A DNA stretch of 63,092 bases, counting the filler, from Atractiella rhizophila (lineage: Eukaryota), in NCBI GenBank assembly GCA_021432655.1. It is 13 parts of 12 records of this genome, joined end to end, with 100 filler letters (N's around TTAATTAATTAA, not from the genome) between each part and the next. Parts side by side here need not be neighbours in the genome. Positions count along the whole stretch, not along the records: positions 48,327 to 53,992 come from MU272357.1; 12 more parts are not named here. One strand, given 5' to 3'. The notes beneath the pieces are model-generated. The model made no database searches and was not told where the DNA came from. It saw only the letters and a list, made by a program, of their open reading frames with translations. Position numbers and translations under genes: made by a program. This document shows, piece by piece, positions 361 to 53,992 of the stretch; position 1 is the first letter of the stretch, and the number at the start of each line of letters is the position of its first letter.

Positions 361-1187
361 TGACGTATCTGTTGAAAATGGAAAGACACTGTTTATAAAA
401 CTTTTTCAACTTGGCAAAAAATGTGCGGATTCCGGTCGTTCAACTATTCCGTACCCATTACTCAGCCCACAGGAAGGCAATATTGTCGATTGGTGCCATG
501 GGGACGACAAGGTGAGTTAATTCAGTCAAAACGAAGGGGCGACAATCTGAGGCACTTTGAAGAAAGCAGCGGACTAAATAAGGCCAATGCAAGTTCATGG
601 CAGCTTGCCGACAACCGAGATATGAGAGAATCGCTTCTCATACTCCAAAGGAAAAGCACACCAATGTTCCTCTGCTTCCCCTTGAGACACCCTTCCATGC
701 AATTCCTGCTTCCAATCCGTCCATCGATTATGATATACCGCTGGTCTCCTCAACAGAATGCACTCCTCCCCAGCCTTCCAATCTGACAATATTTCCTGTG
801 AATGTTCTGATGTTCATTGTGTTCAGAGGGTTCGAATTTGAAAATTTTGGCACTTCTTGACTTAACAGTGACTCTGGTTGACTGCTCGTTCCGACAGATA
901 AATTAATGATGGGATTCGGAATGGCTTGCCAACAAACACACTATGGCTGTACTCACGTTCTAATGGGAAGAGGAGTGTGTTCATTTAAACATTGTAAAGA
1001 TGACACATAATGGCTCAAGTCACCTCATTGGAAGTCGCCTCGTCGGAAACTCAAATTGTGTTACTGTAAAGTCATTTAAAAAATCAAAGATCGCCTCCTT
1101 TTCCAGGTCATGAAAGTGGCATCCAACATCCAATTTCAAACAAAGCAGAAAACTATTTAACACACCAATGTCGCTCTGAATTTGTCT

Positions 1188-3826
1188 CTACAGTTTGCTC
1201 TTGACTAACTCCAGTGGCTCATAGTTAGCGTTGTAGAGGTGATCCGGTACGCTATCGACCGATCGAGCTCCAATGTTACGCGTATCGATCATGTCAGGCA
1301 CGAGCTCCTCAATGTTCCTAGCTCCAATGAGCCTCATGCTGTCAAACATCGTTAGATGAATCTTTTGGAGTTGAGGGGCGCACTTCATCTCCATTTCGTC
1401 CTTCAGGATCTGTATAGCCCTTTCCACTCCTTGATGTCCGTATGCACTATATGCATAAAGGAATGGCCTTCCAATGCCAACGGCCTTAGCACCCAAAGCG
1501 ACGGCCTTGAGAATATCACCAGCTCTTCGAACACCGCCATCGACACTGCCCCTTTTCAGATTAAACCACTGATAGGAACGAAAGCAACGCACTAAATCTC
1601 AAAATCTGGTTTGTCTAGTCCTCGACGCTTAAGCTCACGCTTCACTTCAACAAGAATCTCGATTCCGCTCCTTGCGAAATCAAGTTGACGACCTCCGTGG
1701 TTCGAGAGGACGACTCCTTGAAGCCCCATCTCGGCAGCCAGGACTGCGTCCTATTCCAGCACCAGAGTCAGCGAAAGATGAAGTGCGGAAGGAAACTGAA
1801 GATAACGAGCCTCCCAACATTGTACTCCTTTCAGGATGAGCGGCATCTTCGTAATGCTCTTGAACCATTTCATGTCTTTCCAACTGAGCCCTGGGTCGAT
1901 GAATGACGATATCGCCCGCGCGGCGCCTTGGCTTCTATCGACACTCGAATCTCCCTATACCATATCATCGGTTGAGTATACATAATGAGAGAGGTGTAAC
2001 GTGGGAGGAAAGAACAAACCTGCTGGACCTGCGACCCCACATCTTCGAACTTCATCCTCATATCTTTCGCCCTCCTTCCCAGCTGTGGTGCATCAACGGT
2101 GATGAAGAGACCCTTGATGCCTCTCTTCTCCGCGTGCCTGTCATCGACAAGATAAGCTGTGAGTTGAGGGAAAAAGACAAAAATAAGGAGGCTGTGACGC
2201 GAAACTCACCTCACAATCCGTTCCGTCACACTGCGATCCTTATTCACATAAAGCTGGAACCATTGGTTCTGACCCGGCTGAGCAGTGTCCACAATCTCGT
2301 CGAAAGAGCACGAAGCGAGTGTCGGAATCTAATAAATACACCGCGTGACCCAAGTTTCTCCAGAAAAAATGAGAAAGGGGATGGGAGGACAAACCATCTG
2401 AATGACTCCATGCGTATGCGCCGCTCGAGTCAGGTTCTTCTCCCCCTCTGGATGACCTAGCTTTCCGAGAGCGGTGGCAGTTATGTACATGGGCATGGAG
2501 GATTTGCATCCGAGTAACTGGCCGAGAATCAGTAATCGGACGAACGTAAAGCAAAAGGAGGGGAGACAGACTGTGGTGCTGAAATCTACATTCGTTACGT
2601 CCCGTAAGATTCGTGGGCGAAACCAGAGACGTTGGTATGCCGAATGATTCTCTCTCATCGTTATCTACAGCACAGGCAGAGGAGATATAAGCCTCGTAAT
2701 TCATAACTCGAAGAATAAACGGTAAATAAGAATACAATACCTCATCGTCCGAGCCAGAAGAGTAATAAGCCCACGCCGCGGGCGCCATCACCGTCTTCGC
2801 CAGATTCTCAAAGTCGTACAAATTCAAACAAAGCTCCAGAGGTGGGAGGTTCTTCTTCCGCTCCTCCCGCTCCTTCTCATCCGACGAGACTTCCTTTGGA
2901 GTCTTCCGGAGGACTTCGAGGGAGGTTTTCGAGAGCGGACCGAGGTGTTTCTCTTTCGGCAGGAACCTGCGTATTGGGTTTTAGAGGGAGGAAAGGAGGG
3001 ATGGAAGCAGTACTTGTCTAATGTATCTGGAGGATGGATGGGGTCGAAAGGCTCTGTTGCATCCTTCCCAGCATACTTGAGGATGATAGCTTGTCCACCT
3101 GGGTGCTCTGCAACCCAAGTCAAACATCAGTATGAGTCGTGATTAGATGAAAGTAATAAATAAGAGAGAAGAAGGCAAACAAAAAGAACAACGAGATGCT
3201 ACCATGCCTATAGCTCTAAAGTTACTTCTACGCTTGAGCTTGAGTGCGATGTACTGTAATATTTCATGCAGCACATGCCAAGAATTCTATGAGTGCCGAG
3301 TCTGACGGCAAGCAGCGTCATCTGTCCAACGAGGAGGAAGATACACAGAAAGTGTAGCCATACGTTCATTGAGAAATTCTCAGCGTTCCTGCTTACCATT
3401 AAGAATATGTAGAAATTATGGTCGCTCCGTTTCGCAGAAAGACCACGAATGAATGTGCATATTCAGCGCTTTTTGTTCCTGCTCTCATCCAGGGAGGAGA
3501 CTAGACATTAGAAAGTCAAAGGGGCTCTAATACGATACAAATTCAAGGAAATGTAGCAGCTGGGCATGATCAGTTAGTTGTTTACAAGTAATGACGTTGT
3601 GATTTATGCACACAATGTCAGCAAACTCCGAATTTATCGGTAACAAGAGGATAAAGTAAACAGTAAAAACAAAAAGTGTTTGCAGCAAAAAAGAGAACGA
3701 TAACTCACCAGGCAAGAACTCAGTAACATCATAAACCTTTCCATGGAGAACAACCCAACAACTCTCCTTGGACGCGTGCTTCGCGACCTCCTCCAGCTCC
3801 AAGAGTTTTCCAGGGTTATCAGCCAT
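1188..3826 (-). CDS. CYB2: Flavocytochrome b2 / L-lactate dehydrogenase-like (cytochrome b5 domain + FMN alpha-hydroxy acid dehydrogenase), multi-exon, C-terminal SKL
   Basis: b5 motif [97 protein letters not shown]; ends LVKSKL*. Exons are flanked by GT..AG. Confidence 0.93.
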
Positions 3827-4688
3827 GTTTCTATGCGTCAGAGCGATGGACTCTGAAGGGATATGGAAAGGGGAAGCTGGAGATAATATAGCAAGATAGA
3901 CGCGCTGGAAGCAAAAGTTGGGGTCGGGTATTACACATTTGATTCATCGGCATCTTCCTTTCCAGGACTTATCATGATCCCACTCCTGCCGACGGCATCT
4001 CAACTCGATCTTCTCTTCCTCTTCTTATTGTCCCTTTCATCTCCTTCTTCCCCTTCTTCCTTTTCCTCTTCGTCTGCCAGCGATGTCTGCCACACTCACC
4101 TCCCCTGCGTCTCCCACTGAGAGCCCATGTCTCGTTAACTGCGATGTTGTGACAACCACTTCGACAACTGCGCCGGCAGAAGTGACAACTGGATCGGGGA
4201 ATGGATGGCCGGATGGAGCGAATCGACTGGGAGCTGTTACGTGAGTTCATTCTCTCGCTTCTCGCGCCATTATCCGTAGAGGTCAGAGAGGGATTTTCCC
4301 TGCATTGGGTCATTTGGTGCCGCGTCCATTGTTGCGCAAGTTGTTCTTTGAAGACGTCATGTCTGTTGTTCTATTACTGGAGCACGAGGGATAATTGTGA
4401 CATTTCCTGAAGTGCTATCTTCAAGACTACACTCTAGAGACCGGAGTAAGAGGGCTGCGAGAGGGGACGATAAGTGAGCCATTACCGCTGCCGTCTCTCG
4501 GGACAGCCCAGCCTCAGACCGTATTCAATGCAATGCTTAATGAGTGAAGTACGCTCCCGCTTTTATGGCATGGCAAACGAGTGCATATTCATAGCGCCTA
4601 CAGACCGAATATCTTATATAACCGTTATACCCTTGTTGCTTTTGCTTTCCTCTTCCATTCCCACTCCCCCCCGGCTACTGTAGAAGCT

Positions 4689-5873
4689 ATGTCTGGCATT
4701 CCCACTTTCCCTTCCTCGCCAGAAGGCTTTCCTTGCCTCATAAATTGTATTGTCAGCGCTCCAACGTCATCGTCTACGACGGCAGCGGCTCAAGAGACTG
4801 CTGGGAATGGAAACGATGGGAGCCCGAGTGGGCCAGCAGCCGTTACGTATGTGTATTGCTTACCTTTCACGAAGTACATGTAGGGGAGAAGTTCTTCCCT
4901 TGGTGCTTAATGCTAGTGTCACTGTTATGCTTGTCCTTCCAGAGTATTGATCATATTTACCACAATTGTCATTTCTTTTCCTTTTCCTTTTCCTCAACTA
5001 TTGTCATGGAAGGAATGGAGCGAGAGAAAGAGTGGCCCGATCCAAAGTTCCGTCGGCTCTCCAGCTCTTTTTCGGGGAGCCCAGCCTTGGAGTGGTCAGC
5101 GTGTGCTCGCGCGAGGTTTGCCGCCTACAGACTTTGGTCTCTTGTCCTGCCTGTCCAGTCATCCATACCCACCTTCTCAGCTGTTACGTTTGGGTTGGGA
5201 ACGGTATCTTCTCCCCGGCTGTCGGTTTGATGATCGTGCCAAGTGGAAAGAGGAGCAGGCTTAGCATTCCTGCCGGCCTAGGCCGCATGTGACTTTTCTC
5301 CTTTTTTTTGCTGGGCAAGCTCCTTCATACGGCTTTACATCCCTATGTCGGGAACCGACCGACGCCTGGGGAAAGAGAGCCGTAGGGAGATACGGACCTT
5401 CCAGCAAGCAGTGAAACCAGTTCACTGATGTAATGATTTCATTAGTTCATGATTTTGGCGGTTTGCACCTCCCTAGTCTCTCTCATCACCAGCAATAGAT
5501 ACTGACAATATGTTCTTCAACAGGTATTACAGCGCCATAGCGTTCGTATCCATTCCTCCCTTCACCTACCTCCTAACCAACATCTGTGCACAGACTAGCA
5601 ATCGTTCTTCTCATCTGCGTCGCCATCTTTTCCCGCTTCCTCTACACCCGTCGCCTCCGAAAAGCCTACGCACAGCGAGCAGCCCAAAACTCTGTCCTCC
5701 ATGCAAGGGAACTTGAAGACCAACGAAGACGAGGAGAAGCCGATGGGCTCCCCGGCTACTACGAGCCCTCTGGTCCAGCTCCGTTACCTGTTCAACCTAC
5801 GATCGATCAGCTGAGCGGCGGACGGAACGAAGTGTCGTGGCTGCCTGCGTGGATGAGAGGCGTGGGAGGGGGA
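4689..5873 (+). CDS. Small single-pass membrane protein (S/T-rich N-terminus, TM helix, LPxY motif), 3' truncated by linker
   Basis: ATG at 4689; GTATGT donor at 4847; later exon LAIVLLICVAIFSRFLYTRRLRK (TM plus basic stop-transfer) and LPGYYEP. Confidence 0.55.
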
Positions 5874-5973: not shown

Positions 5974-8359
5974 TTCTTCCTCAGTCTGTTCTGCCCAAAG
6001 TTCCTGCCATGCTTGCTGAGTACACATTTCTCCATCATGCTCATTGCTAAAACCAGGATTATCTTCTGGCGGTGATGCAGAAAATACCATCTCATGCATC
6101 AGCTGCTGTAATGAAGGTGGGAGAGGATTTGTCCAAACTCGCCGTGCTTGAAGAGAAGCGTGATGTGATGTTGGTAAGGTAAAATCAATGTCATCTGGTC
6201 CAAGAATAAATGGTGTCTGAGATTGGCATTCAGCATTATTCAGATTTGCTGGCTGTGCAAACAAGCGATTTGGACGATATATTGGCTCAAATTGAAGTCT
6301 TAGAGTTGAAGGAGAAGCGTTTGTGGCAGGCTCAGAAGCATCAGAAGTAGAGATAAGATGAGCATTGTTCCGGTGCTGGTTTGAATTGGCATGCCGTAAG
6401 CAGNNNNNNNNNNNNNNNNNNNNNNNNNNNNNNNNNNNNNNNNNNNNNNNNNNNNNNNNNNNNNNNNNNNNNNNNNNNNNNNNNNNNNNNNNNNNNNNNN
6501 TTTCCTCCCTTACATTTTGCAATGATTGATTGAGGTTTCCTTCTTCAAATCGCAATTAGCATCAGTCTCCTTTTAACTTTCGAGCTATCAGTTTACGAGA
6601 ATCCTGTTATCACACATGCCTGAAGGGCACACAACATTTGTAGCCGAATCAATCAAATGAAGTTACCTCCTCTTTCCAGTATCTTTCTCAAGATTATGTC
6701 CATCCAAGCTTCTATGATACACAGGTCAAATCCATAGGAACAAAGTCTGCATTTGAGCTTCATGCTTTTCACCCTTCACCTTTCCAATTGTGGACGAATG
6801 CTTCGAGTTCTTGACCCAACTTCTGCCATCCACAAATCATAGAGTTCTGTTATCTATCATTTCCGAGGGTCCGGTGCAAGGCGATCCCAGCCTGAATACG
6901 AGAGTGAAATGTAATTGTGATGTTGGGCTGAACCTCCATAGCACTGAAGTACTTCTCAGAGGTAAGCATGGCATGGACAAAGTGTTAAGAACAAGAAAGG
7001 TGAACCAAGATGACAATCGCCATCCAACATCGTCTGTGCTGCGCAAATACTCACCACTTTTGCTGCTGCTCACTTCTCTGCCTCACCAAATCCGGCTAAA
7101 TTCAAGATTGCTACGGACCAGTTGAAACAACTAGGATCATACCGCAAAGAACTTGTTCTCAGCTGGCAAAAAAATGGGTAAGTAGACAGTTCCTGTCACT
7201 TCCATGTCAGGTTTTGGCTGCTGAAAACGTATGTGAACCCTTACTCATTTATCATAATCGTCGTCTCATCTACAATAGTATCATCTTGATATCTCGAATA
7301 TTATACTTTAAGCCACTACTTTATCGAATACCCAAACCGCCTGCAATAATCGTCAACCTTCTTCTCACTTCTTCACCTTAGCTGACAACCCTTCGGATCA
7401 TAGAATCGCTGGGATATGACACAGCTTGCTGTTCACGAACTTACGCCCGTTATTCACGTTATGGGGCATTACCCCAACAGGAGTTGTTTCCCTATTATTA
7501 CTTGGACGAGTTCCTTTGTCTCTACAACATGTTTAAGGAATATCGTCATCCATCTAACGACAAACTTCCATTACCCAGTTGCCTCACATAACGTATTTTT
7601 GACAGAACTCGAAGCTCTTGGCATCCAACTTCAAAACCTCATCTTCTTTAATTTTGAATACATTGGGAGTTTGGCATGGTTTACGATACTCTATGAATTG
7701 CATTGTCTTCATCTTTACCTCTGGGAAGGGGGAGAAGGCATTGCCGTACTGGAACCTCTTCCTCAAGATGTTAATGACGTTTGGGAATTTCAAAGCTATC
7801 TGCTCACTTTCGAGAGCGAATCAGGAGTTGTCCCGATTCCACAGCAAATGAGTCGAGGCTCTTGGTGTATACAACTTACAACGCAGGCTAACAAGCCTTA
7901 CATATCTAGATTACCACCAGAACTGTTGCATTCCGTCTTGTCGATCTGTTTCGAAGGTGAGAAGGGGACCTACCAGAATCGAAGCTTTGCGATGCCTCAT
8001 CTACAGATCAAGGATTCGATCGAAGAGATGCAGCATAGACAAGACCTAACCAACTAGTTTACAGCGAATCAAGCTGGGAACTTACACAAAAACTCGCATC
8101 TCAGAGACAGAAATGATACTTCTCTCAATGCTTGTAAGTTACGACTGACAAGCAAATGTCAGTGATAACGAGAACCTAGCGCCGAATTTGTCAAAGTTCA
8201 CATTGAACTAGAAAGTCAACGGAAGAAAGTGATAATCAAGCCAATGACAGATCCAGCATCGAACAAGCGCAAGCGCGCTCCACCACACAGAAAAAGTGAA
8301 CCAACATGATGAAGATAGAAAAACCTTTCATGATGGGATGCACCGCATCAGGAGCTTCT

Positions 8360-37929: not shown

Positions 37930-39070
37930 ATGGTAGCATCATCGAACCAAGCTGCTCCTCTAGTAATTGTAGCAGGAATAACAGGTCAACAAGGTGGATC
38001 CGTCGCAGACGCCCTCATCGGCTCTCCAGATCGTTATAGGATCAGAGGCTTGACGAGGGATGCGGGAAAAGAGAGTGCGAGGAAGTGGGTGGAAAAAGGA
38101 GTTGACGTGAAGGAGGTAAATATCGTTGTTGGAAATGAGGAGGCCGTCAAGGCTGCCCTCCATGGTGCCGACTATGTATTCGTGAGTTTGGTCTGTGGTG
38201 TTTGTGATGAAAGAGATGTCCAACGTTTCAGGTAGTTCGTCACACAATTTTGGGAGCATGTTGACTTGGCCAAGGTCCGTCTTTACATTTGCTCCATTAA
38301 TGCACCCCTGAATTGACGGATGAGACAGGAAGTTGCAGAGTCGAAAATGGTCGTCGACATCGCCCGGTCTCTCCCCACGCTCAAACTCTTTATCTGGTCC
38401 GGTCTCCCCTCCACCTCCGGCGCTTCCCAAGGCAAATACACCCGCGCCATCCACTTCGAGGGCAAGGCTCAAGTCACCTCTTACCTGCAAGAAACCGGCT
38501 GTCCTTTCATCGACGTTCAAGCCGGATGGTACATGCAAAACTTTCTCAGTGTCCTCAAGCCGTCTCCAGAAGGTCAAATTATGTTGCCTTTGGACCCGCA
38601 CGTGAAGCTGCCAGCCATCGATATCCGCGATTATGGACTTTGGGTGTTGGCCGGGATCGAGGGGAAGATCGAGAAAGGGAAGTCGGTGCAAGTCTTTGGG
38701 GAAGAGATTACTTTAGCTGAGTTGGTGAGGGAGATAGAGGACGGTGTGTCCCCTTTCTATCAGGTCGTGACACATGTCCTGATCGGAATCATCAGTGACG
38801 GGGAAGCCGACAACGTATCAAAAAGTCGCGGCGAAGGATCTCCCTTTGATGAAGGGTGTACCGGAGTTCCTGATAGGAGTGTTCCATGATAACTATTCCT
38901 CCTGGGAAGAGTTTGGATGTTCGCATTTCCTCTTCCATCACGTGTTAGTTGCTAATTCACATCCCTGCGCAGATTTTGGGACATGGGTGTTAGAAATCCC
39001 AACTTATTTGAAGAGGAAGCCGAAGACCTGGAAAGAGTTTGCTGTTGAGAACAAGGACTTATTTTACTAG
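37930..39070 (+). CDS. NmrA-like NAD(P)-binding protein, multi-exon
   Basis: VIVAGITGQQGGSVADAL..IRGLTRD; FIWSGLP..HFEGKAQV; AGWYMQNF; IDIRDYG; PKTWKEF. Confidence 0.9.
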
Positions 39071-39416
39071 GCTAGTTAGCTGAATAGTGATTGACGTGCA
39101 CCAAAATCGAGCATTGGTGCTCGATAACATGCAACTGCAATAACCACGGTGCAGCGAACATCTACCTTCAGCTTCATCCGCTCCATAACTAGCTCATCAG
39201 AAAAAAAGGGATCGAAGTGTGTGATATCCCAGGCTGTTGAACCTTCAAGTTTAGAACGTTCAGACAAGTTGTCAAGTTGTCAACTTTGCACCTGACATAT
39301 GCGGCGATGACAAAACATTTGATGGCCACAAACAAGGACACCACTTCTCAAAATACACTAAGCAACTTGAGCCTTTGGAGGCTGAAACCTGTCCACCGCG
39401 ACGGGTATAGCCAGCC

Positions 39417-41857
39417 ATGTCGCTGATTTCGTATGACCCAAGGTCTTTGCTGGAGACGCACAACGCGAAAGGGAAGGAAGTCGCGAGCCTCCTTGACTCT
39501 ATAGATCTGAAGGATGGACCCATAACCCGAAGGACAGTGATTGGAGGTGACAAGCATTACTCAAAACAGGATCTAAGGGCAATGAAGCGTGTCGACAGTT
39601 TGTTAGAATTACGTGAAGGTGTGAACAAAGGTACTTTGCCCTACAGTTTCTTGCTTCTTCCTTCCTTTGCTAATGCTCACTTCAAAGGTGTTTTTATTTT
39701 TCTTCAGGTCAATTCTTCTGCATTCCGCACAGTAGCCATCCACTTCGTGGCTGTGGATCAACAAGGGAATGTAGCACCAGTCCATCTCCTCCACCTCCCT
39801 CGGTCGTCTCTTCGTCCGTTAGAGCACCTCGTTCCATTCCATGCCGTGTTCGGTCTGTGTTCACTTTGAGCAAAACTGGGACAATCGGTTGACCCTTGTG
39901 GAGCAGTACTTCAGGAGCCATACGTCCGCCAAACTCAAGACGGCTTCATCTTGCGTGTCGAATCTCCTACCGATATCGTCTGGTCTCCTTCGTTCGACCA
40001 CTTTAGTCTCACTCCGTCTTTTTACACCGCACTTTTTGCAGGGTTGAGTTTCACCATCCCAAATGATAAACTTGCGGGCAATGAATGGAAGAAACGCGGA
40101 AACATTCATTACCAAAAGAAGGAGTTCCACTCCGCTATGTCTTGCTACAGTCGAGGAATAGCATGCTCCGGCAACCTCGGGAGCGAGAAATCATTGCTTC
40201 GTCTCAATCGCGCAGCAACGCTACTTGTGCTCGACTTCCCTGGTGCTGCCCTCCGCGACCTTTCTCTTATCGAAGTATCTGCTTTAGGAACGGGACCGCA
40301 CATGAAATATCTTGTGCGCAAAGCGACAGCCCTCTACAACATTGGCGCATTCCAAGCTTCCTTCGACCTATCTACGTCTATCCTTAAGGAGTTTGCTTCG
40401 CTAAAAGAAGCGCAAGATATTCTCGATCGTTCGGGAAAGCGCCTAGAAGAAACTAGAGGTCATTTCAATTTTGCAGAGATGTATCATCACCCTCCGTACA
40501 ATGGAGATGTAGCGCCATTCATTGGACCTATAGTGTTACGCAAAACACCTTCAAGCGGACGCGGCCTTTTTGCTACTAGACAGATTCGAGCTGGCGAAGT
40601 GCTTCTGGTATCTGCTCCACTAGCCAGTGTTCATGTTGGAAATGCAGAGAAAGAACTTGTTGTCGGTGCAAATTCCGAGACGGCCATGCTAGCGTCACAC
40701 GCACAAGTAGAACTTGCTGCTAGGTTAGTAGAGAGGATGGAAGATAATCCATATGTTCACTGGATGGTCGAACAGTTGTGGCCGGGACCTCATAAGGCTA
40801 AACTGTCAGGTTGGCAAGCGGAGGAGTTTGATTTGAGGCAGGTCACAGAACGACATCTACGTGGCGAGACGTTTGGGAAATCCATGACAGGCATTGACGT
40901 TGCTCTTGTCGAATCTGCTATCACTTTCAACGTCTTTCGTCCCGAAACGATCACCCAGCAAAGGGCCCCTGACGCAGCTGAGACAAATGCTTATGCGCCA
41001 GCAGCTCTGTATTTCTATTCGTCATTCATGAATTCAGCTTGCCTTGTTAGTTGTTTTCCTTTTCATACCGAGTATTGATTTAGGAATGTTGAAGGGAAAC
41101 GCACTTTACTCTTTCATCGGCGATGTTTGGATTCTGCGGGCTAGTCGCTCGATTGCGGAGGGAGAAGAAGTGATGGATACGTATATCGACCCGTGCAGGA
41201 GATTAGAAGACAGAGAAGAGGTCGCCAGTAAGCATGGCTTCGTTTGCCGATGTGAACTGTGTGTTTGGGATCGAATGGACGGTGTGCAAGAGCGAAAGAA
41301 GAGGTACGCTAAAATTATTTTAGAACGCTATTTGATGCCGCGTTGGTTGTACAGGGCCGATCTTATGTCCAACCTCTCTCGGGGTCTGTCGTTGAAACGT
41401 CTAGTTCAGCTTCGTGAAAAACTGTTGGGCACATATCACCTTTCCTGTTCACCGCTCTCGACGACAAATTGGGGACCAAGAACAATTTTACCCGATGTAT
41501 ACACCGTTGACAGAATTATTGCTGACCTATACCGACAAGCAGGAGACATATCAGCTGCCATTGGGTTTCTGGAAAAGAGTCTGGAAGATTTGGGGCTCCC
41601 TGTGTCACGACGGAAGGAAATGGGGGCCATCACCAATCAGTGGATAGCGAGAATACGTGTAGTGGACGTGATCTTGGTAGCCTTGGAACTGGGGAGCCTT
41701 TCTGATATGTCTGGAAAGAAAGATGATTATCTGTACGTGTCCTCGCAACACAATAATCGCTACTGATGAGGAGCATAGGTTTTATCTTGGTTTAGCCAAA
41801 CTAATTGACGAGCAAGCATTTGGACCGGGTCTACCGATCTCAAGACACGCAATTTGA
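39417..41857 (+). CDS. TPR + SET domain protein (SMYD-like fungal family), multi-exon
   Basis: RVESPTDI; WKKRGNIHY (TPR); GRGLFATRQIRAGEVLL; FMNSACL|GNA..IGD..RASRSIAEGEEVMDTY; HGFVCRCELC (post-SET). Confidence 0.88.
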
Positions 41858-48326: not shown

Positions 48327-50082
48327 ACAGCTTCTCATGCCGGAAAGGAGGAGGATTTGGTTCGCTACTTACAAATGGCCCGCAAGACTCTTCGTGAACC
48401 CAAGATTGACACTGAGCTCGCCGTCGCTTTCGCCAAGACCGACCGCCTGCACGACATGGAGGAGTTCTTGAACTACACGAACGTCGTTGATCAGCTCGCT
48501 GCCGGAGAACAGGTTTTCGAGGCTGGTCTCTACGAGGCTGCTAAGATTCTTTTCTCTAGCATTTCGAACTATGCTCGTTTGGCAACGACTCTCATCTATC
48601 TCGGGGAAAATCAAGCTGCAGTCGATGCGGCAAGGAAAGCTGGCAACACCCAGGTGTGGAAACAGGTCAATGCTGCTTGTATCGACAAGAAAGAGTTCCG
48701 TCTTGCTCAAATTTGTGGTCTGAACCTCATCGTTCACGCTGAGGAGCTACCGGTTTGTTTTCCATTTCATAAATCCAACTTTTCTGATATTTGAACGCAG
48801 GCTCTTATCTCGCTTTACGAAAAACGCGGACACTCCGACGAGCTCATTTCTATGATGGAGGCAGGTCTGGGTTTGGAGAGGGCTCACATGGGAATGTTCA
48901 CCGAGCTCTCGGTTGTATGTCCTTTGACTCTTCCTTCCTGCTGAGTTTTCCTCACAACTTTAAACAGCTCTATGCCAAGTACAAATCGGACCGTATGATG
49001 GAGCACCTTAAGTTGTTCTGGTCTCGAATCAACATCCCCAAGGTCCTCAAAGCTGCCGAGAAGGCTCATCTCTGGCCTGAGCTCGTCTTCCTCTACATCA
49101 AGTACGATGGTATGTTTTTGCTCGTCCCTTCACATATTTTCACAAGACTGATGTCTTTTTGATGCTCAGAGTTCGACAATGCTGCTCTTGCGATGATGGA
49201 GCACTCCGCCGATGGCTGGGAGCACAACCAGTTTAAGGATGTGATCGTCAAGGTCGCGAATATCGAGATTTGTTACAAATCCCTCACGTTTTACCTTCAA
49301 GAACAACCGACGCTCCTCACTGATCTTCTTACCGTCCTCATCAACCGGCTAGATCATACAAGGACGGTCAACATGTTCAGACGGACGGATAATTTGCCAC
49401 TCATCAAGCCTTACCTTATCGCTGTCCAATCCGTACGTGTTCTTCGCATTCTTGATCTGGACCACACGCTAACTCAGGATCGACACAGAAAAACATTCCC
49501 AGTGTCAACGCTGCACTTCATGAGATTCTGATTGAAGAGGAGGATTATAAGACGTTACGCGATAGTATTGATGCCTATGACGCTTATGAGGCTCTCGAGC
49601 TTGCATCGCGGTTAGAGAGACACGAGCTATTGGAGTTCAGGAGGCTGGCTGCTCACCTTTACAAGGTCCACTCTCTTTTCCTTGGTACTTGAAATATTCT
49701 GACGTGCTGGTCCCGTCCAGAAAAACGCTCGATGGGAGCTGTCAATTTCTCTCTCAAAGCAGGACAAGCTCTTCAAGGACGCAATGGAGACCGCCGCCGA
49801 ATCCAACTCTACCGAAGTTGCGGAGGACCTATTGAGCTATTTCGTGGACATCGGATCGAAGGAGTGTTTCGCTGCCTTGCTTTTCATCTGCTACGACCTT
49901 CTCCGGAGGGATGTGGTGGAAGAGTTCTCGTGGCGCCATGCTCTTACGGATTACATCATGCCTTACCGGTTGCAAGTCATGAGGGAACAGCAGACTCAGG
50001 TATGATAGTCTTCTTGTGCTGAGCGGCAGGCACTGACCGCTATGCAGATGGCATCGCTTGAGGAGCAGGTTAAAAAGCTGAC
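48327..50082 (+). CDS. CHC1: Clathrin heavy chain, C-terminal portion, multi-exon
   Basis: [80 protein letters not shown]. Confidence 0.98.
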
Positions 50083-50866
50083 NNNNNNNNNNNNNNNNNN
50101 NNNNNNNNNNNNNNNNNNNNNNNNNNNNNNNNNNNNNNNNNNNNNNNNNNNNNNNNNNNNNNNNNNNNNNNNNNNNNNNNNNNNNNNNNNNNNNNNNNNN
50201 NNNNNNNNNNNNNNNNNNNNNNNNNNNNNNNNNNNNNNNNNNNNNNNNNNNNNNNNNNNNNNNNNNNNNNNNNNNNNNNNNNNNNNNNNNNNNNNNNNNN
50301 NNNNNNNNNNNNNNNNNNNNNNNNNNNNNNNNNNNNNNNNNNNNNNNNNNNNNNNNNNNNNNNNNNNNNNNNNNNNNNNNNNNNNNNNNNNNNNNNNNNN
50401 NNNNNNNNNNNNNNNNNNNNNNNNNNNNNNNNNNNNNNNNNNNNNNNNNNNNNNNNNNNNNNNNNNNNNNNNNNNNNNNNNNNNNNNNNNNNNNNNNNNN
50501 NNNNNNNNNNNNNNNNNNNNNNNNNNNNNNNNNNNNNNNNNNNNNNNNNNNNNNNNNNNNNNNNNNNNNNNNNNNNNNNNNNNNNNNNNNNNNNNNNNNN
50601 NNNNNNNNNNNNNNNNNNNNNNNNNNNNNNNNNNNNNNNNNNNNNNNNNNNNNNNNNNNNNNNNNNNNNNNNNNNNNNNNNNNNNNNNNNNNNNNNNNNN
50701 NNNNNNNNNNNNNNNNNNNNNNNNNNNNNNNNNNNNNNNNNNNNNNNNNNNNNNNNNNNNNNNNNNNNNNNNNNNNNNNNNNNNNNNNNNNNNNNNNNNN
50801 NNNNNNNNNNNNNNNNNNNNNNNNNNNNNNNNNNNNNNNNNNNNNNNNNNNNNNNNNNNNNNNNNN

Positions 50867-52420
50867 ACGCGCATGACTAGCCTAACTCGGGTCCCTGTTC
50901 CCGGGCGGTCAAGCTCAGCTTGTGTTTTGCTTATCTCAAGGTTTCCCTAGGTTTTCTACGTCCCGCTAGCTGGCGCTGCGATTACCTTTTCTTCACTAAC
51001 CGCCTCACCTCTCGTTCCTAGTAAGTCCTCTGGAGGAGTTTGGCTGTAGTAGGGACTATTTCGTGTAGCGGGCGTACCCAAACCCTACAGACGCGCTTAC
51101 TTACAGGCTTGCCATTTGTACGCGAAAGTTAGAGGGAGGCGGACCACGTTATATTACTTGTTTACAATCAGGGCAGAACTGACCAAAACGTAACAAAGAT
51201 TCGTAGCTTGGTGAAGCCTCCTTCGGCAGCCATTACATACAAGAACCGACCAGTTAATACTGGAAACGGCTTATAGCGCTTGGTTACAAGCGACCATGTA
51301 CTACTCGCGGTGTTCCGGGTCCAGTCGTCTTTTCGATCATGGCTTTTGCTTCCGTGCTGTGTCTCTACGAGCTTACGTAGGCAGTCCCTTGTAAGGAGAT
51401 TGCTTACGGAACTTAGTCTGGTGAAGTTGAAGGGAGCCGAAACCTTGTGTCACACGGACACTAGGGCGTGGACTGTTCGCAAAGTTCAAGCGCTTCGTGT
51501 TACTCCTCGCATTTTCGGCAAGAGGTCGGGGCTAACTTAACAAGTAATAGTTGTAACCGCTTTATCGTTCCGCATGAATTAATCGTAGCAGGCTGACGCG
51601 TTGTCCCAAACGGCACGCGCCCGTTCATTAGGGGACTCGGATTCAAACAGCACTACTGTATAATATAGCTTAATAGAGTAACTCTCCGCGCGCACTTCAC
51701 ACTTCGGCTCTGGTAGTGCAACGGCAAAATCGCTTCGTTATTCGTTGCTGTTCTCTTATTCCTGGAGAGGCCGATCGCCTTCTTGAACCCCTCCACCCTC
51801 CGTAGGTTAGTGCGGTCAATTTTAGAGCCCACCAAGTCACCAAGTCGCCTTGTATTACGCTTCTATCTTTACAGAAAGGAGGGACTCGACGTTTACGTCC
51901 GTCGACTTCGCCCTTCTTACTAAACTACTTGTGTAAATCCATTGCAAAGTATAAAAGCAGACCGAGGTGGCCGTGTTCCTTACCACTCTCCTCCGTGTGG
52001 AAAGTATACCCTATGGTGTTAATCGAGAGTACGGAAGAAATAGGAAGGACAGTGAAGAGATGGTAGGGAGGTCGGAGAGTTAAGTGGAGTCTTGAGTTGA
52101 CGAGGAGTGGGGGTGAGACCAAACGAACTTAGTTCTAGTAAGCGACGGGCCCCGATGCACAGACGGTAGGGGAGGAGGGTACTCGTTTGAGGTTCAGGAG
52201 GCCGCTTATTGACTGTACTCTTTGATTACTCGCTGGACAGATCGAGCGAACCATAAATGAAGGTGCTTAACCATCTCGTGCTACTTCTAGTGTCGCTTCT
52301 TAGGCTCTCGTAAGCGCTACAACCAGTCTCAAGACAGGCTTTCATAAAAGAGCAGGTCGTGGCTCTGCTTTTCCTCTTACTCCCTACTACTCTTTTTCCC
52401 TTCTACTTTCACTGTCTTTA
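50867..52420. other. Segment reversed but not complemented
   Basis: TA/AT bias is inverted (hand count over 51001-51240: 20 TA vs 8 AT). Reading backwards gives a recognisable gene and intron-like signals. Confidence 0.85.
52224..52346. other. OST4: OST4-like oligosaccharyltransferase subunit exon, legible only when the + strand is read backwards (52346->52224, no complementation)
   Basis: Backwards codons give ILSDRTLTNIANALGFFAVIFIVLYQFVEVNTKRARQVAH*, matching the OST4 pattern (I.D..L...AN.LG.....L(I/V)VLYH(F/Y)V.VN). Confidence 0.8.
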
Positions 52421-52426
52421 GCCATA

Positions 52427-53992
52427 ATGAAGACCTGTGCAACATTTCTTGCGCTTGCTCTCCCATTCGCAGCGCATGCGGCCTTGAGCGATGCGGGTTC
52501 GTATTTTGCCTTTCGAGTATAACGTCGACCCATGGATATTGTCCAGATGTCGCCTCCGTCTTCCCTAATTCACGAAACGACCTCACGTCGTTAACCAGCG
52601 CAACTGTTCGATTTAGGCAGTACACTGCTTCCTTTGTAGCAAACACGTCGCACGTTCTTAGTGAGCAGTTTCATTTAATCATTACTGAGATCCTGAACTG
52701 AACTGAATGGCGTTCAGTCACCCTGAATAAGACGGACGCGACGAGGGATCGAGTAGGATGGATGGGTCATGGCATCGGTGCGTCTTAGACGATTCCGCGT
52801 GAAAACCCCATTTCTGATGTGGAGACAGGAACTGGAATGAGCAATGGAGATTTGTATGCTATTTGGCCCAATGATGACGACACCTGGACGATTTCACATC
52901 GTCAACCAGCCCAACACGTCCTTCCATCTGTAATAACTTCTTCCGTGGGCTTGTACAGCGTGGTCCCTTCGCTGTCGACCAATTCAACCTCTGGGACTTC
53001 TTGGACCGCCGTCTCTTTCATTCGTCCCCTTTCTTTCGCAAATGTCGCAAGCTACGGTACAACTTCCCAGCACGTTACGATTGCGAGAGAGGCTGGTCAG
53101 AATCTTCTCTACACGTATGGATCACAGAATCCTGGGTCAAGCGGAGATCTCGTTGAACACGTCGATCAAGGAACGGCATCAGCTGATTTGTCCAAGGCCT
53201 ATGTCCCTGAATCCTCTGGAAACGGAAGTGGAGGTGGATCTGGTGGATCCGGCGGTTCTGGAGGATCTGGAGGGTCTGGCAATGGCGGTGGCAGTAACGA
53301 ACCTCAAGTTGTCACAGCTGGCTGGACTCGCCACAACAAGCTGATAGTATCTCATGGTCCGTCGCTTCTTTCCCTGTAGAGATTTCCCTCGAACTCACAA
53401 CTGGCCCAGCTGTTTTTGGAGGCGTGGCTTTCATGATAATCTCTCCAGCAGCCATTCTGTTTGGACGATACTTCAGGTCTCATAAGTGGCTGCCCATCCA
53501 TCGAGCCCTTCAGATCCTTACAGCCATTTTCGTAATCATTGCTTTTGCGTTAGCCGAAGTAGCTACTGGTTCTGATAAGAAACATACACATCACGTGAGT
53601 TTGCATCGCCTCACCACTCAATATTAGAACTAAGACTCTGAGCAGAAAATTGGTTATGCCATTTTCGTCATTACGCTGTTGCAAGGCATCATCGGTCTAG
53701 TTGCGCACCACATCAAATCACCGCCTGGTTCGAATCGCAGTCCCCTTCGTTGGGTGCATGTCTTCGTTGGTATCGTTCTGACCGGCTTAGGTTATTCTCA
53801 AGTGCGAACTGGAATGGAGGAATGGGAGAATGAGGGCTCAGAAGGCATGACAGCTCCGAAAGGTGTTGAAATCGTCTTCTATGTTCTTTTGGGTGTTGAG
53901 GTAGCTGCTTATCTCATCGGCATCTTTCTCTCCCCTCGAACTTTCCTTGGGAGAGCACCAAGGACTGTTGAGCAGAAGCATGAGATGGAGCA
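52427..53992 (+). CDS. Signal peptide + CDH-type cytochrome/DOMON domain + G/S linker + cytochrome b561 ferric-reductase-like domain, 3' truncated
   Basis: MKTCATFLALAL; VGWMGHGI|GTGMSNGDLYAIWPN..TISHR; LIVSH..ISPAAILFGRY..WLPIH; HTHH; RWVHVFVG. Confidence 0.88.

Follow-up and report, generated by a model that had tools for sequence, protein, structure and literature searches.

OST4 is a very small membrane subunit of the ER oligosaccharyltransferase. According to the sections of PMC3687696 on which we draw, Ost4p binds Stt3p and Ost3p/Ost6p via its helix and may scaffold their recruitment, its transmembrane span lies at about residues 10-28, and its loss impairs N-glycosylation, as is known for yeast and human. 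The closest described system for the other half of this report, which concerns assembly gaps, is that of long-read gap fillers such as PBJelly: in the parts of its descriptions used here, the sides of a gap can be flank-extended or "overfilled", with the overlap left unjoined (PMC3504050; PMC9635638), and 25 N's is the minimum gap definition (PMC3504050).

The stretch of DNA that we analysed ("the window") is 63,092 nucleotides of the fungus Atractiella rhizophila, taken from assembly GCA_021432655.1 (G000 in our coordinates). It consists of 13 short pieces joined by N44-linker-N44. (The two pieces that were searched have twins on larger contigs at 93-99% identity and may be split-out alleles or repeats.) The piece at 48327-53992, which is identical to scaffold C1178 of this assembly, has been reported to hide an OST4-like gene that can only be read backwards. 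We conclude, with a probability of roughly 0.96, that this is an ordinary clathrin heavy chain - OST4 - CDH-cytochrome/b561 locus in which 1476 bp next to a gap were written in mirror order, likely by a gap-filling step. OST4 looks hidden only because the letters of 1.5 kb beside the assembly gap stand in reverse order; as an intact OST4 copy is present elsewhere in the assembly, this is a data error and not new biology.

An OST4 signal in a right-to-left reading

When positions 52346 to 52224 are read from right to left without complementing, they give a 40-codon peptide followed by TAG, and in this the sequence-only reading was reproduced. (To our knowledge, no polymerase or cell uses this direction.) The plus, reverse-complement, and complement-only readings of 52224-52346 are stop-ridden or unrelated text. 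In particular, an OST4 in an ordinary six-frame reading of this interval was ruled out, as there are stops and OST4 is absent. We then used an HMM of 26 Ost4 relatives to score the stop-to-stop pieces (4016) that the 12 readings of the window yield. The mirror-read piece reached 68.4 bits (E = 5.4e-20) with the runner-up at 11.7 bits, from an HMM that is not fully independent because the relatives were found by using the intact copy on contig C296. The OST4 signal in the window is genuine and far beyond chance.

The first two residues of this peptide do not belong to OST4. Codon 1, together with the opening base of codon 2, comes from the normally oriented neighbour (52346-52343; that is, the four plus-strand bases at 52343..52346, given that the as-is match to C296 starts exactly at 52343), so that the two residues are a junction chimera. 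By alignment to C296, the window has the OST4 coding sequence from codon 2 (second base) through the TAG (52224..52342), readable only in mirror order. From residue 3 on, the window copy is identical to the OST4 of C296; overall, the two agree in 38 of 40 residues and in the stop (39 of 41 positions), and the true start is Met-Ile.

The mirror tract and its intact counterpart

The mirror-written tract spans 50867..52342 (1476 bp), and its true sequence is C296:11379->9900, on the minus strand of C296. As written, the tract has no match to C296 on either strand. Once it is turned round, 1467 of 1482 columns are identical, with 7 substitutions and 3 indels. Both flanks of the tract match C296 as they stand, and the join is exact (C296:9900/9899). 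Also, base 52343 truly adjoins the first base after the neighbouring gap of 784 N's (50083..50866), and the tract thus fits exactly once it is turned round. The gap corresponds to 774 bp of C296, which hold the 3' end of the clathrin gene, intergenic DNA, and the ATG of OST4. (The clathrin-OST4 interval of C296 also contains a 19-bp tandem duplication, at about 5625-5662 in the coordinates of L005, our extract of this locus; the contigs from sequencing runs X1 and X2 have one unit fewer.) C1178 duplicates the C296 locus almost identically and most likely represents the other allele.

Two ordinary sources of backward sequence were considered. A DNA inversion yields a reverse complement. A natural inversion is ruled out because the match requires reversal without complementing. 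A mirror repeat within the window is ruled out as well: none of the 20-mers of the turned-round tract occur on either strand of the window. The tract can also be seen without any reference. Our direction score, a Markov comparison of forward and reversed k-mers trained with one piece left out at a time, is negative in six consecutive 300-bp bins (50727-52526), and elsewhere in the window it is negative for at most one bin running. No mirror tract adjoins the window's remaining internal gap (97 N's, 6404-6500); both flanks of this gap match other contigs as written.

On C296, Pfam identifies the clathrin heavy chain, OST4, and the CDH-cytochrome/b561 gene in this order and in one direction. The window retains the 3' exons of clathrin (48327..50082, plus strand), which are 98.5% identical to C296:13905-12154 and score 95.7 bits against Pfam Clathrin; their introns are spliced in runs X3 and X10. 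On the other side of the tract, positions 52343-53992 match C296 as written at 99.3% identity and contain the gene for a protein with a CDH-cytochrome (DOMON-like) domain and cytochrome b561 (52427..53992, plus strand; start codon read from the sequence), which is cut by the scaffold end. It scores 26.7 bits for CDH-cyt, just below the cut-off of 27, and 23.8 bits for Cytochrom_B561. A second copy of the cytochrome gene alone lies at G000:C5:252789-254377 (76% identical), with neither clathrin nor OST4 in the 14 kb around it. Among 161 metagenome loci, the best 80 were examined, and none of them has clathrin or the CDH-cytochrome/b561 gene beside OST4; only 35 of these loci have more than 2 kb upstream, and the relatives are distant (42-69% identity). 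The positive control worked.

A Pfam Ost4 search of the assembly gave one match, on C296 (54 bits), which rules out a second OST4 paralogue. Thus, the statement that the gene is invisible to six-frame translation holds for the window copy; the C296 copy was found at once by a six-frame search. The search for another copy that had been suggested turned up this one intact gene.

Mirror tracts elsewhere in the assembly

We applied the direction score to 40 complete scaffolds between 5.9 and 8.5 kb long (every fifth scaffold from C970 to C1165; 283,780 bases, all from small scaffolds), and we flagged those with a score of -20 or lower. Seven were flagged: 6 of the 17 with gaps and 1 of the 23 without. 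All six flagged scaffolds with gaps match allelic contigs (93-99.9%) only when turned round. The tracts, each beside a gap and confirmed against allelic contigs, are at 743-3541 of L018 (C1000), 443-4032 and about 4270-5380 of L021 (C1030), about 3039-3829 of L022 (C1040), 1938-4192 of L026 (C1080), 4342-6308 of L038 (C1005), and 2075-3880 and 4352-4861 of L054 (C1165). The ungapped scaffold (L050, score -21) was rejected as a mirror tract and counted as a false positive because other contigs match it as written. Verified tracts are therefore in 6 of 17 gapped versus 0 of 23 ungapped scaffolds (P = 0.003, Fisher exact test; P = 0.03 if L050 is included as 1 of 23).

Every verified tract touches a gap, on its left or its right side, and with the tract in the window this makes seven of seven cases that touch an N gap. 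In the five tracts that were checked, the base at the gap edge truly adjoins the normal flank, to within 0-3 bp. Summed over five of the six scaffolds, the mirror tracts cover 12,927 of 262,358 non-N bases. The mirror fault is systematic in this assembly. Two larger contigs, C288 (about 50499-50868) and C121 (about 38505-40815), probably hold such tracts too, as each agrees, without being turned round, with a mirror tract and does so close to a 25-N gap of its own.

For users of these data, this means that about a third of the sampled small scaffolds with gaps carry mirror tracts. As mirror tracts are common by gaps, sequence there should be reversed before a missing gene, orphan DNA, or a hidden gene is called in this assembly. 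A k-mer direction score finds the tracts in seconds (7 of 40 flagged, 6 of them true).

How the fault may have arisen

We propose that a gap-filling or contig-extension step likely complemented a minus-strand fill without reversing it. Complementing without reversal would yield a tract of this kind on either side of a gap. Some features of the gaps resemble those described for PBJelly. Exactly 25 N's are present in 5 of 24 gaps in loci L018-L065; several of the tracts lie at 25-N gaps, and the two sides of the gap overlap once the tract is turned round. PBJelly writes 25 N's at overfilled gaps. We also compared error profiles. Indels occur at 3.6/kb in mirror tracts and at 5.1/kb in normal flanks (a set in which diverged repeats and fills in the correct orientation may be present). 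No long-read error signature is seen in the tracts, and as their indel rate is not above that of the flanks, the error profile does not point to a long-read fill.

We did not find a published account of such a complement-without-reversal fault in the literature; the sections considered of PMC8245031, PMC11659978, and PMC6191289 dealt with unrelated matters. It is conceivable, although we would wager somewhat against it, that the tracts come from an undocumented fault of this type in a gap filler with which other public draft genomes were also processed. If so, many records would contain kilobases of mirror DNA by gaps, in which real genes would escape any six-frame search and seem to have been lost. 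The mirror fault itself was observed in this one assembly.

Alternatively, the reversal could date from the handling of files after assembly, for instance by a database, rather than from the gap-filling step. This would sit well with the fact that a single copy of the assembly was compared (G000:C1178 is identical to the window scaffold) and that the error profile does not single out a long-read fill. We consider it unlikely, as the tracts end inside contigs, at points that are not marked in a FASTA file. Furthermore, each tract begins at the edge of a gap, and its join is exact or nearly so (0-3 bp), which requires knowledge of the contig ends before filling.

The start codon and the sequencing runs

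Of the 24 listed runs, four were compared, as contigs throughout and with the C296 version only. X1 and X2 are DNA runs of a single sample, from which the assembly itself may have been made. X10 is RNA on record, and X3 is spliced, its kind not being on record.

The sequence-only reading noted that the peptide lacks an in-frame ATG, and it suggested that the gene is truly cryptic, with the start codon on a coding micro-exon of its own that fell into the gap. Part of this stands: the ATG and the next base do fall inside the N gap of the window. But because the ATG falls there, no coding micro-exon is needed. On C296 the ATG is directly in frame, and so it is in X1 record 8, a contig that spans OST4, the gap span, and the end of clathrin; none of the 10 letters in which this contig differs touches the ATG. 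An ATG is at the same position in 73 of 80 metagenome relatives (the best 80 of 161), and 6 of the 80 have a two-residue extension. The pyrimidine tract and GACGAG that were taken for the end of an intron are the leader of the neighbouring plus-strand gene, read backwards. On the side of a micro-exon, one relative in the 80 (L135, just upstream of 5001) has an apparent intron end directly inside the start codon, so that the start codon appears to be split by an intron, and the micro-exon idea may hold there. In addition, C296 has a GT-AG-shaped stretch of 55 nt (L005:5446-5392, on the minus strand and within the span of the window's gap) whose end is 8 nt short of the ATG. Its place before the ATG would make this candidate a UTR intron, and none of the RNA joints listed corresponds to it. 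Overall, we view a cryptic gene with a lost coding micro-exon as very improbable, and we return to an ordinary OST4 gene next to a gap that was likely misfilled.

The 55-nt stretch is possibly a 5'-UTR intron accompanied by an upstream ORF, judging from its sequence; a 36-codon ORF at L005:5533-5423 overlaps it. X10 and X3 both skip about 55 nt past the OST4 stop, and the best GT-AG fit is a 54-nt 3'-UTR intron that begins 8 nt past the stop (L005:5252-5199; mirror-written at 52162..52215 in the window). Both runs carry the 5282 allele, which is inside the OST4 coding region. X10 covers the 3' part of the coding sequence, with almost no cover near the ATG, and contigs cannot reveal a start. 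An X3 contig (L005:3746-4387) reaches about 570 nt upstream of the start of the cytochrome gene, across the junction and in normal orientation; this could be a long leader or read-through.

The DNA runs also show how the mirror tract's own alleles are arranged. Normal orientation across the junction is seen in X1 record 6 and X2 record 18 (1519 bp), and the four letters in which they differ (L005:4158, 4336, 4382, and 4823) are alleles that the mirror tract has. A fifth, the window allele at L005:5282, is carried by X1 record 8. In total, 5 of the 7 substitutions in the tract are present in normally oriented DNA-run contigs. The remaining 2 substitutions and the 3 indels are absent from X1 and X2 among the differing letters listed; these could stem from filling errors or from further alleles. 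The rows listed for the runs against the C296 version include no loose end at the 52342/52343 junction, and the absence of reads that hold the mirror junction is shown indirectly. That the mirror tract is real in the living fungus, through some process in which a strand is copied backwards, might be suggested by its abutting the right-hand neighbour with no N between and by its 7 substitutions and 3 indels relative to C296, but we give this practically no credence given that 5 of those 7 substitutions occur in normal orientation in DNA-run contigs across the junction, that all 7 verified tracts adjoin an N gap, and that we know of no polymerase that writes a mirror copy.

The OST4 protein

The OST4 gene on C296 has an in-frame ATG and encodes 40 amino acids. 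The identification of OST4 is upheld: the protein scores 55.5 bits against Pfam Ost4 (PF10215; cut-off 25), covering profile positions 1-33 of 34, and it aligns from residue 1 and without gaps to the human OST4 chain 2lat_A (E = 0.0066). The match to yeast Ost4p is weak (E = 0.97). There is one hydrophobic helix (the best 19-residue Kyte-Doolittle mean is 2.19, from residue 10), and the length and single span fit the OST4 pattern (about 35-40 amino acids, with the transmembrane segment at about residues 10-28).

A HMMER search of 1.84 billion representatives found 29 relatives, of which 26 belong to Pfam Ost4 and are 50-66% identical to the C296 protein; we excluded the other three matches (P0002, P0003, and P0005), which are long and unrelated proteins, from our HMM. 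A word-index homologue search found nothing, although the HMMER search did find relatives. The exact 40-residue protein is absent from a collection of 15 billion proteins, which may be due either to annotation or to a filter on length. The prediction that annotation pipelines would miss this gene is borne out to that extent and only in part, and the absence is a reminder of how very small genes drop out.

The protein belongs to the OST4 family and is accordingly predicted to be a 40-residue, single-helix membrane subunit of the ER oligosaccharyltransferase. By homology, and following the sections of PMC3687696 cited above, we infer that it would pack against STT3 and help to recruit an OST3/OST6-type subunit, thereby stabilising N-glycosylation. 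As OST4 is a widespread eukaryotic subunit and the copy here is ordinary, the gene has little biological weight of its own.

Comparison with known systems

The tracts resemble the output of PBJelly in having extensions from contig ends, overlapping sides that are left unjoined, and 25-N gaps. They differ in being reversed without complementing, which is not described for PBJelly in the parts of its accounts cited here (PMC3504050; PMC9635638).

The protein shows no notable difference from known OST4/Ost4p (human PDB entries 2lat and 6s7o; yeast 1rkl and 6ezn). In human OST4, the hydrophobic residues Leu21 and Val23, in the half of the helix on the cytosolic side, mediate contacts with Stt3/Ost3; the A. 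rhizophila protein has Val at 23, and its residues 18-24 are all hydrophobic. It does not have the C-terminal KKXX, which the cited sections of PMC3687696 assign to vertebrates and Dictyostelium only. At the level of the gene, the differences from known OST4 are the 3'-UTR intron and, in the window, a copy that was mirror-written by an assembly fault.
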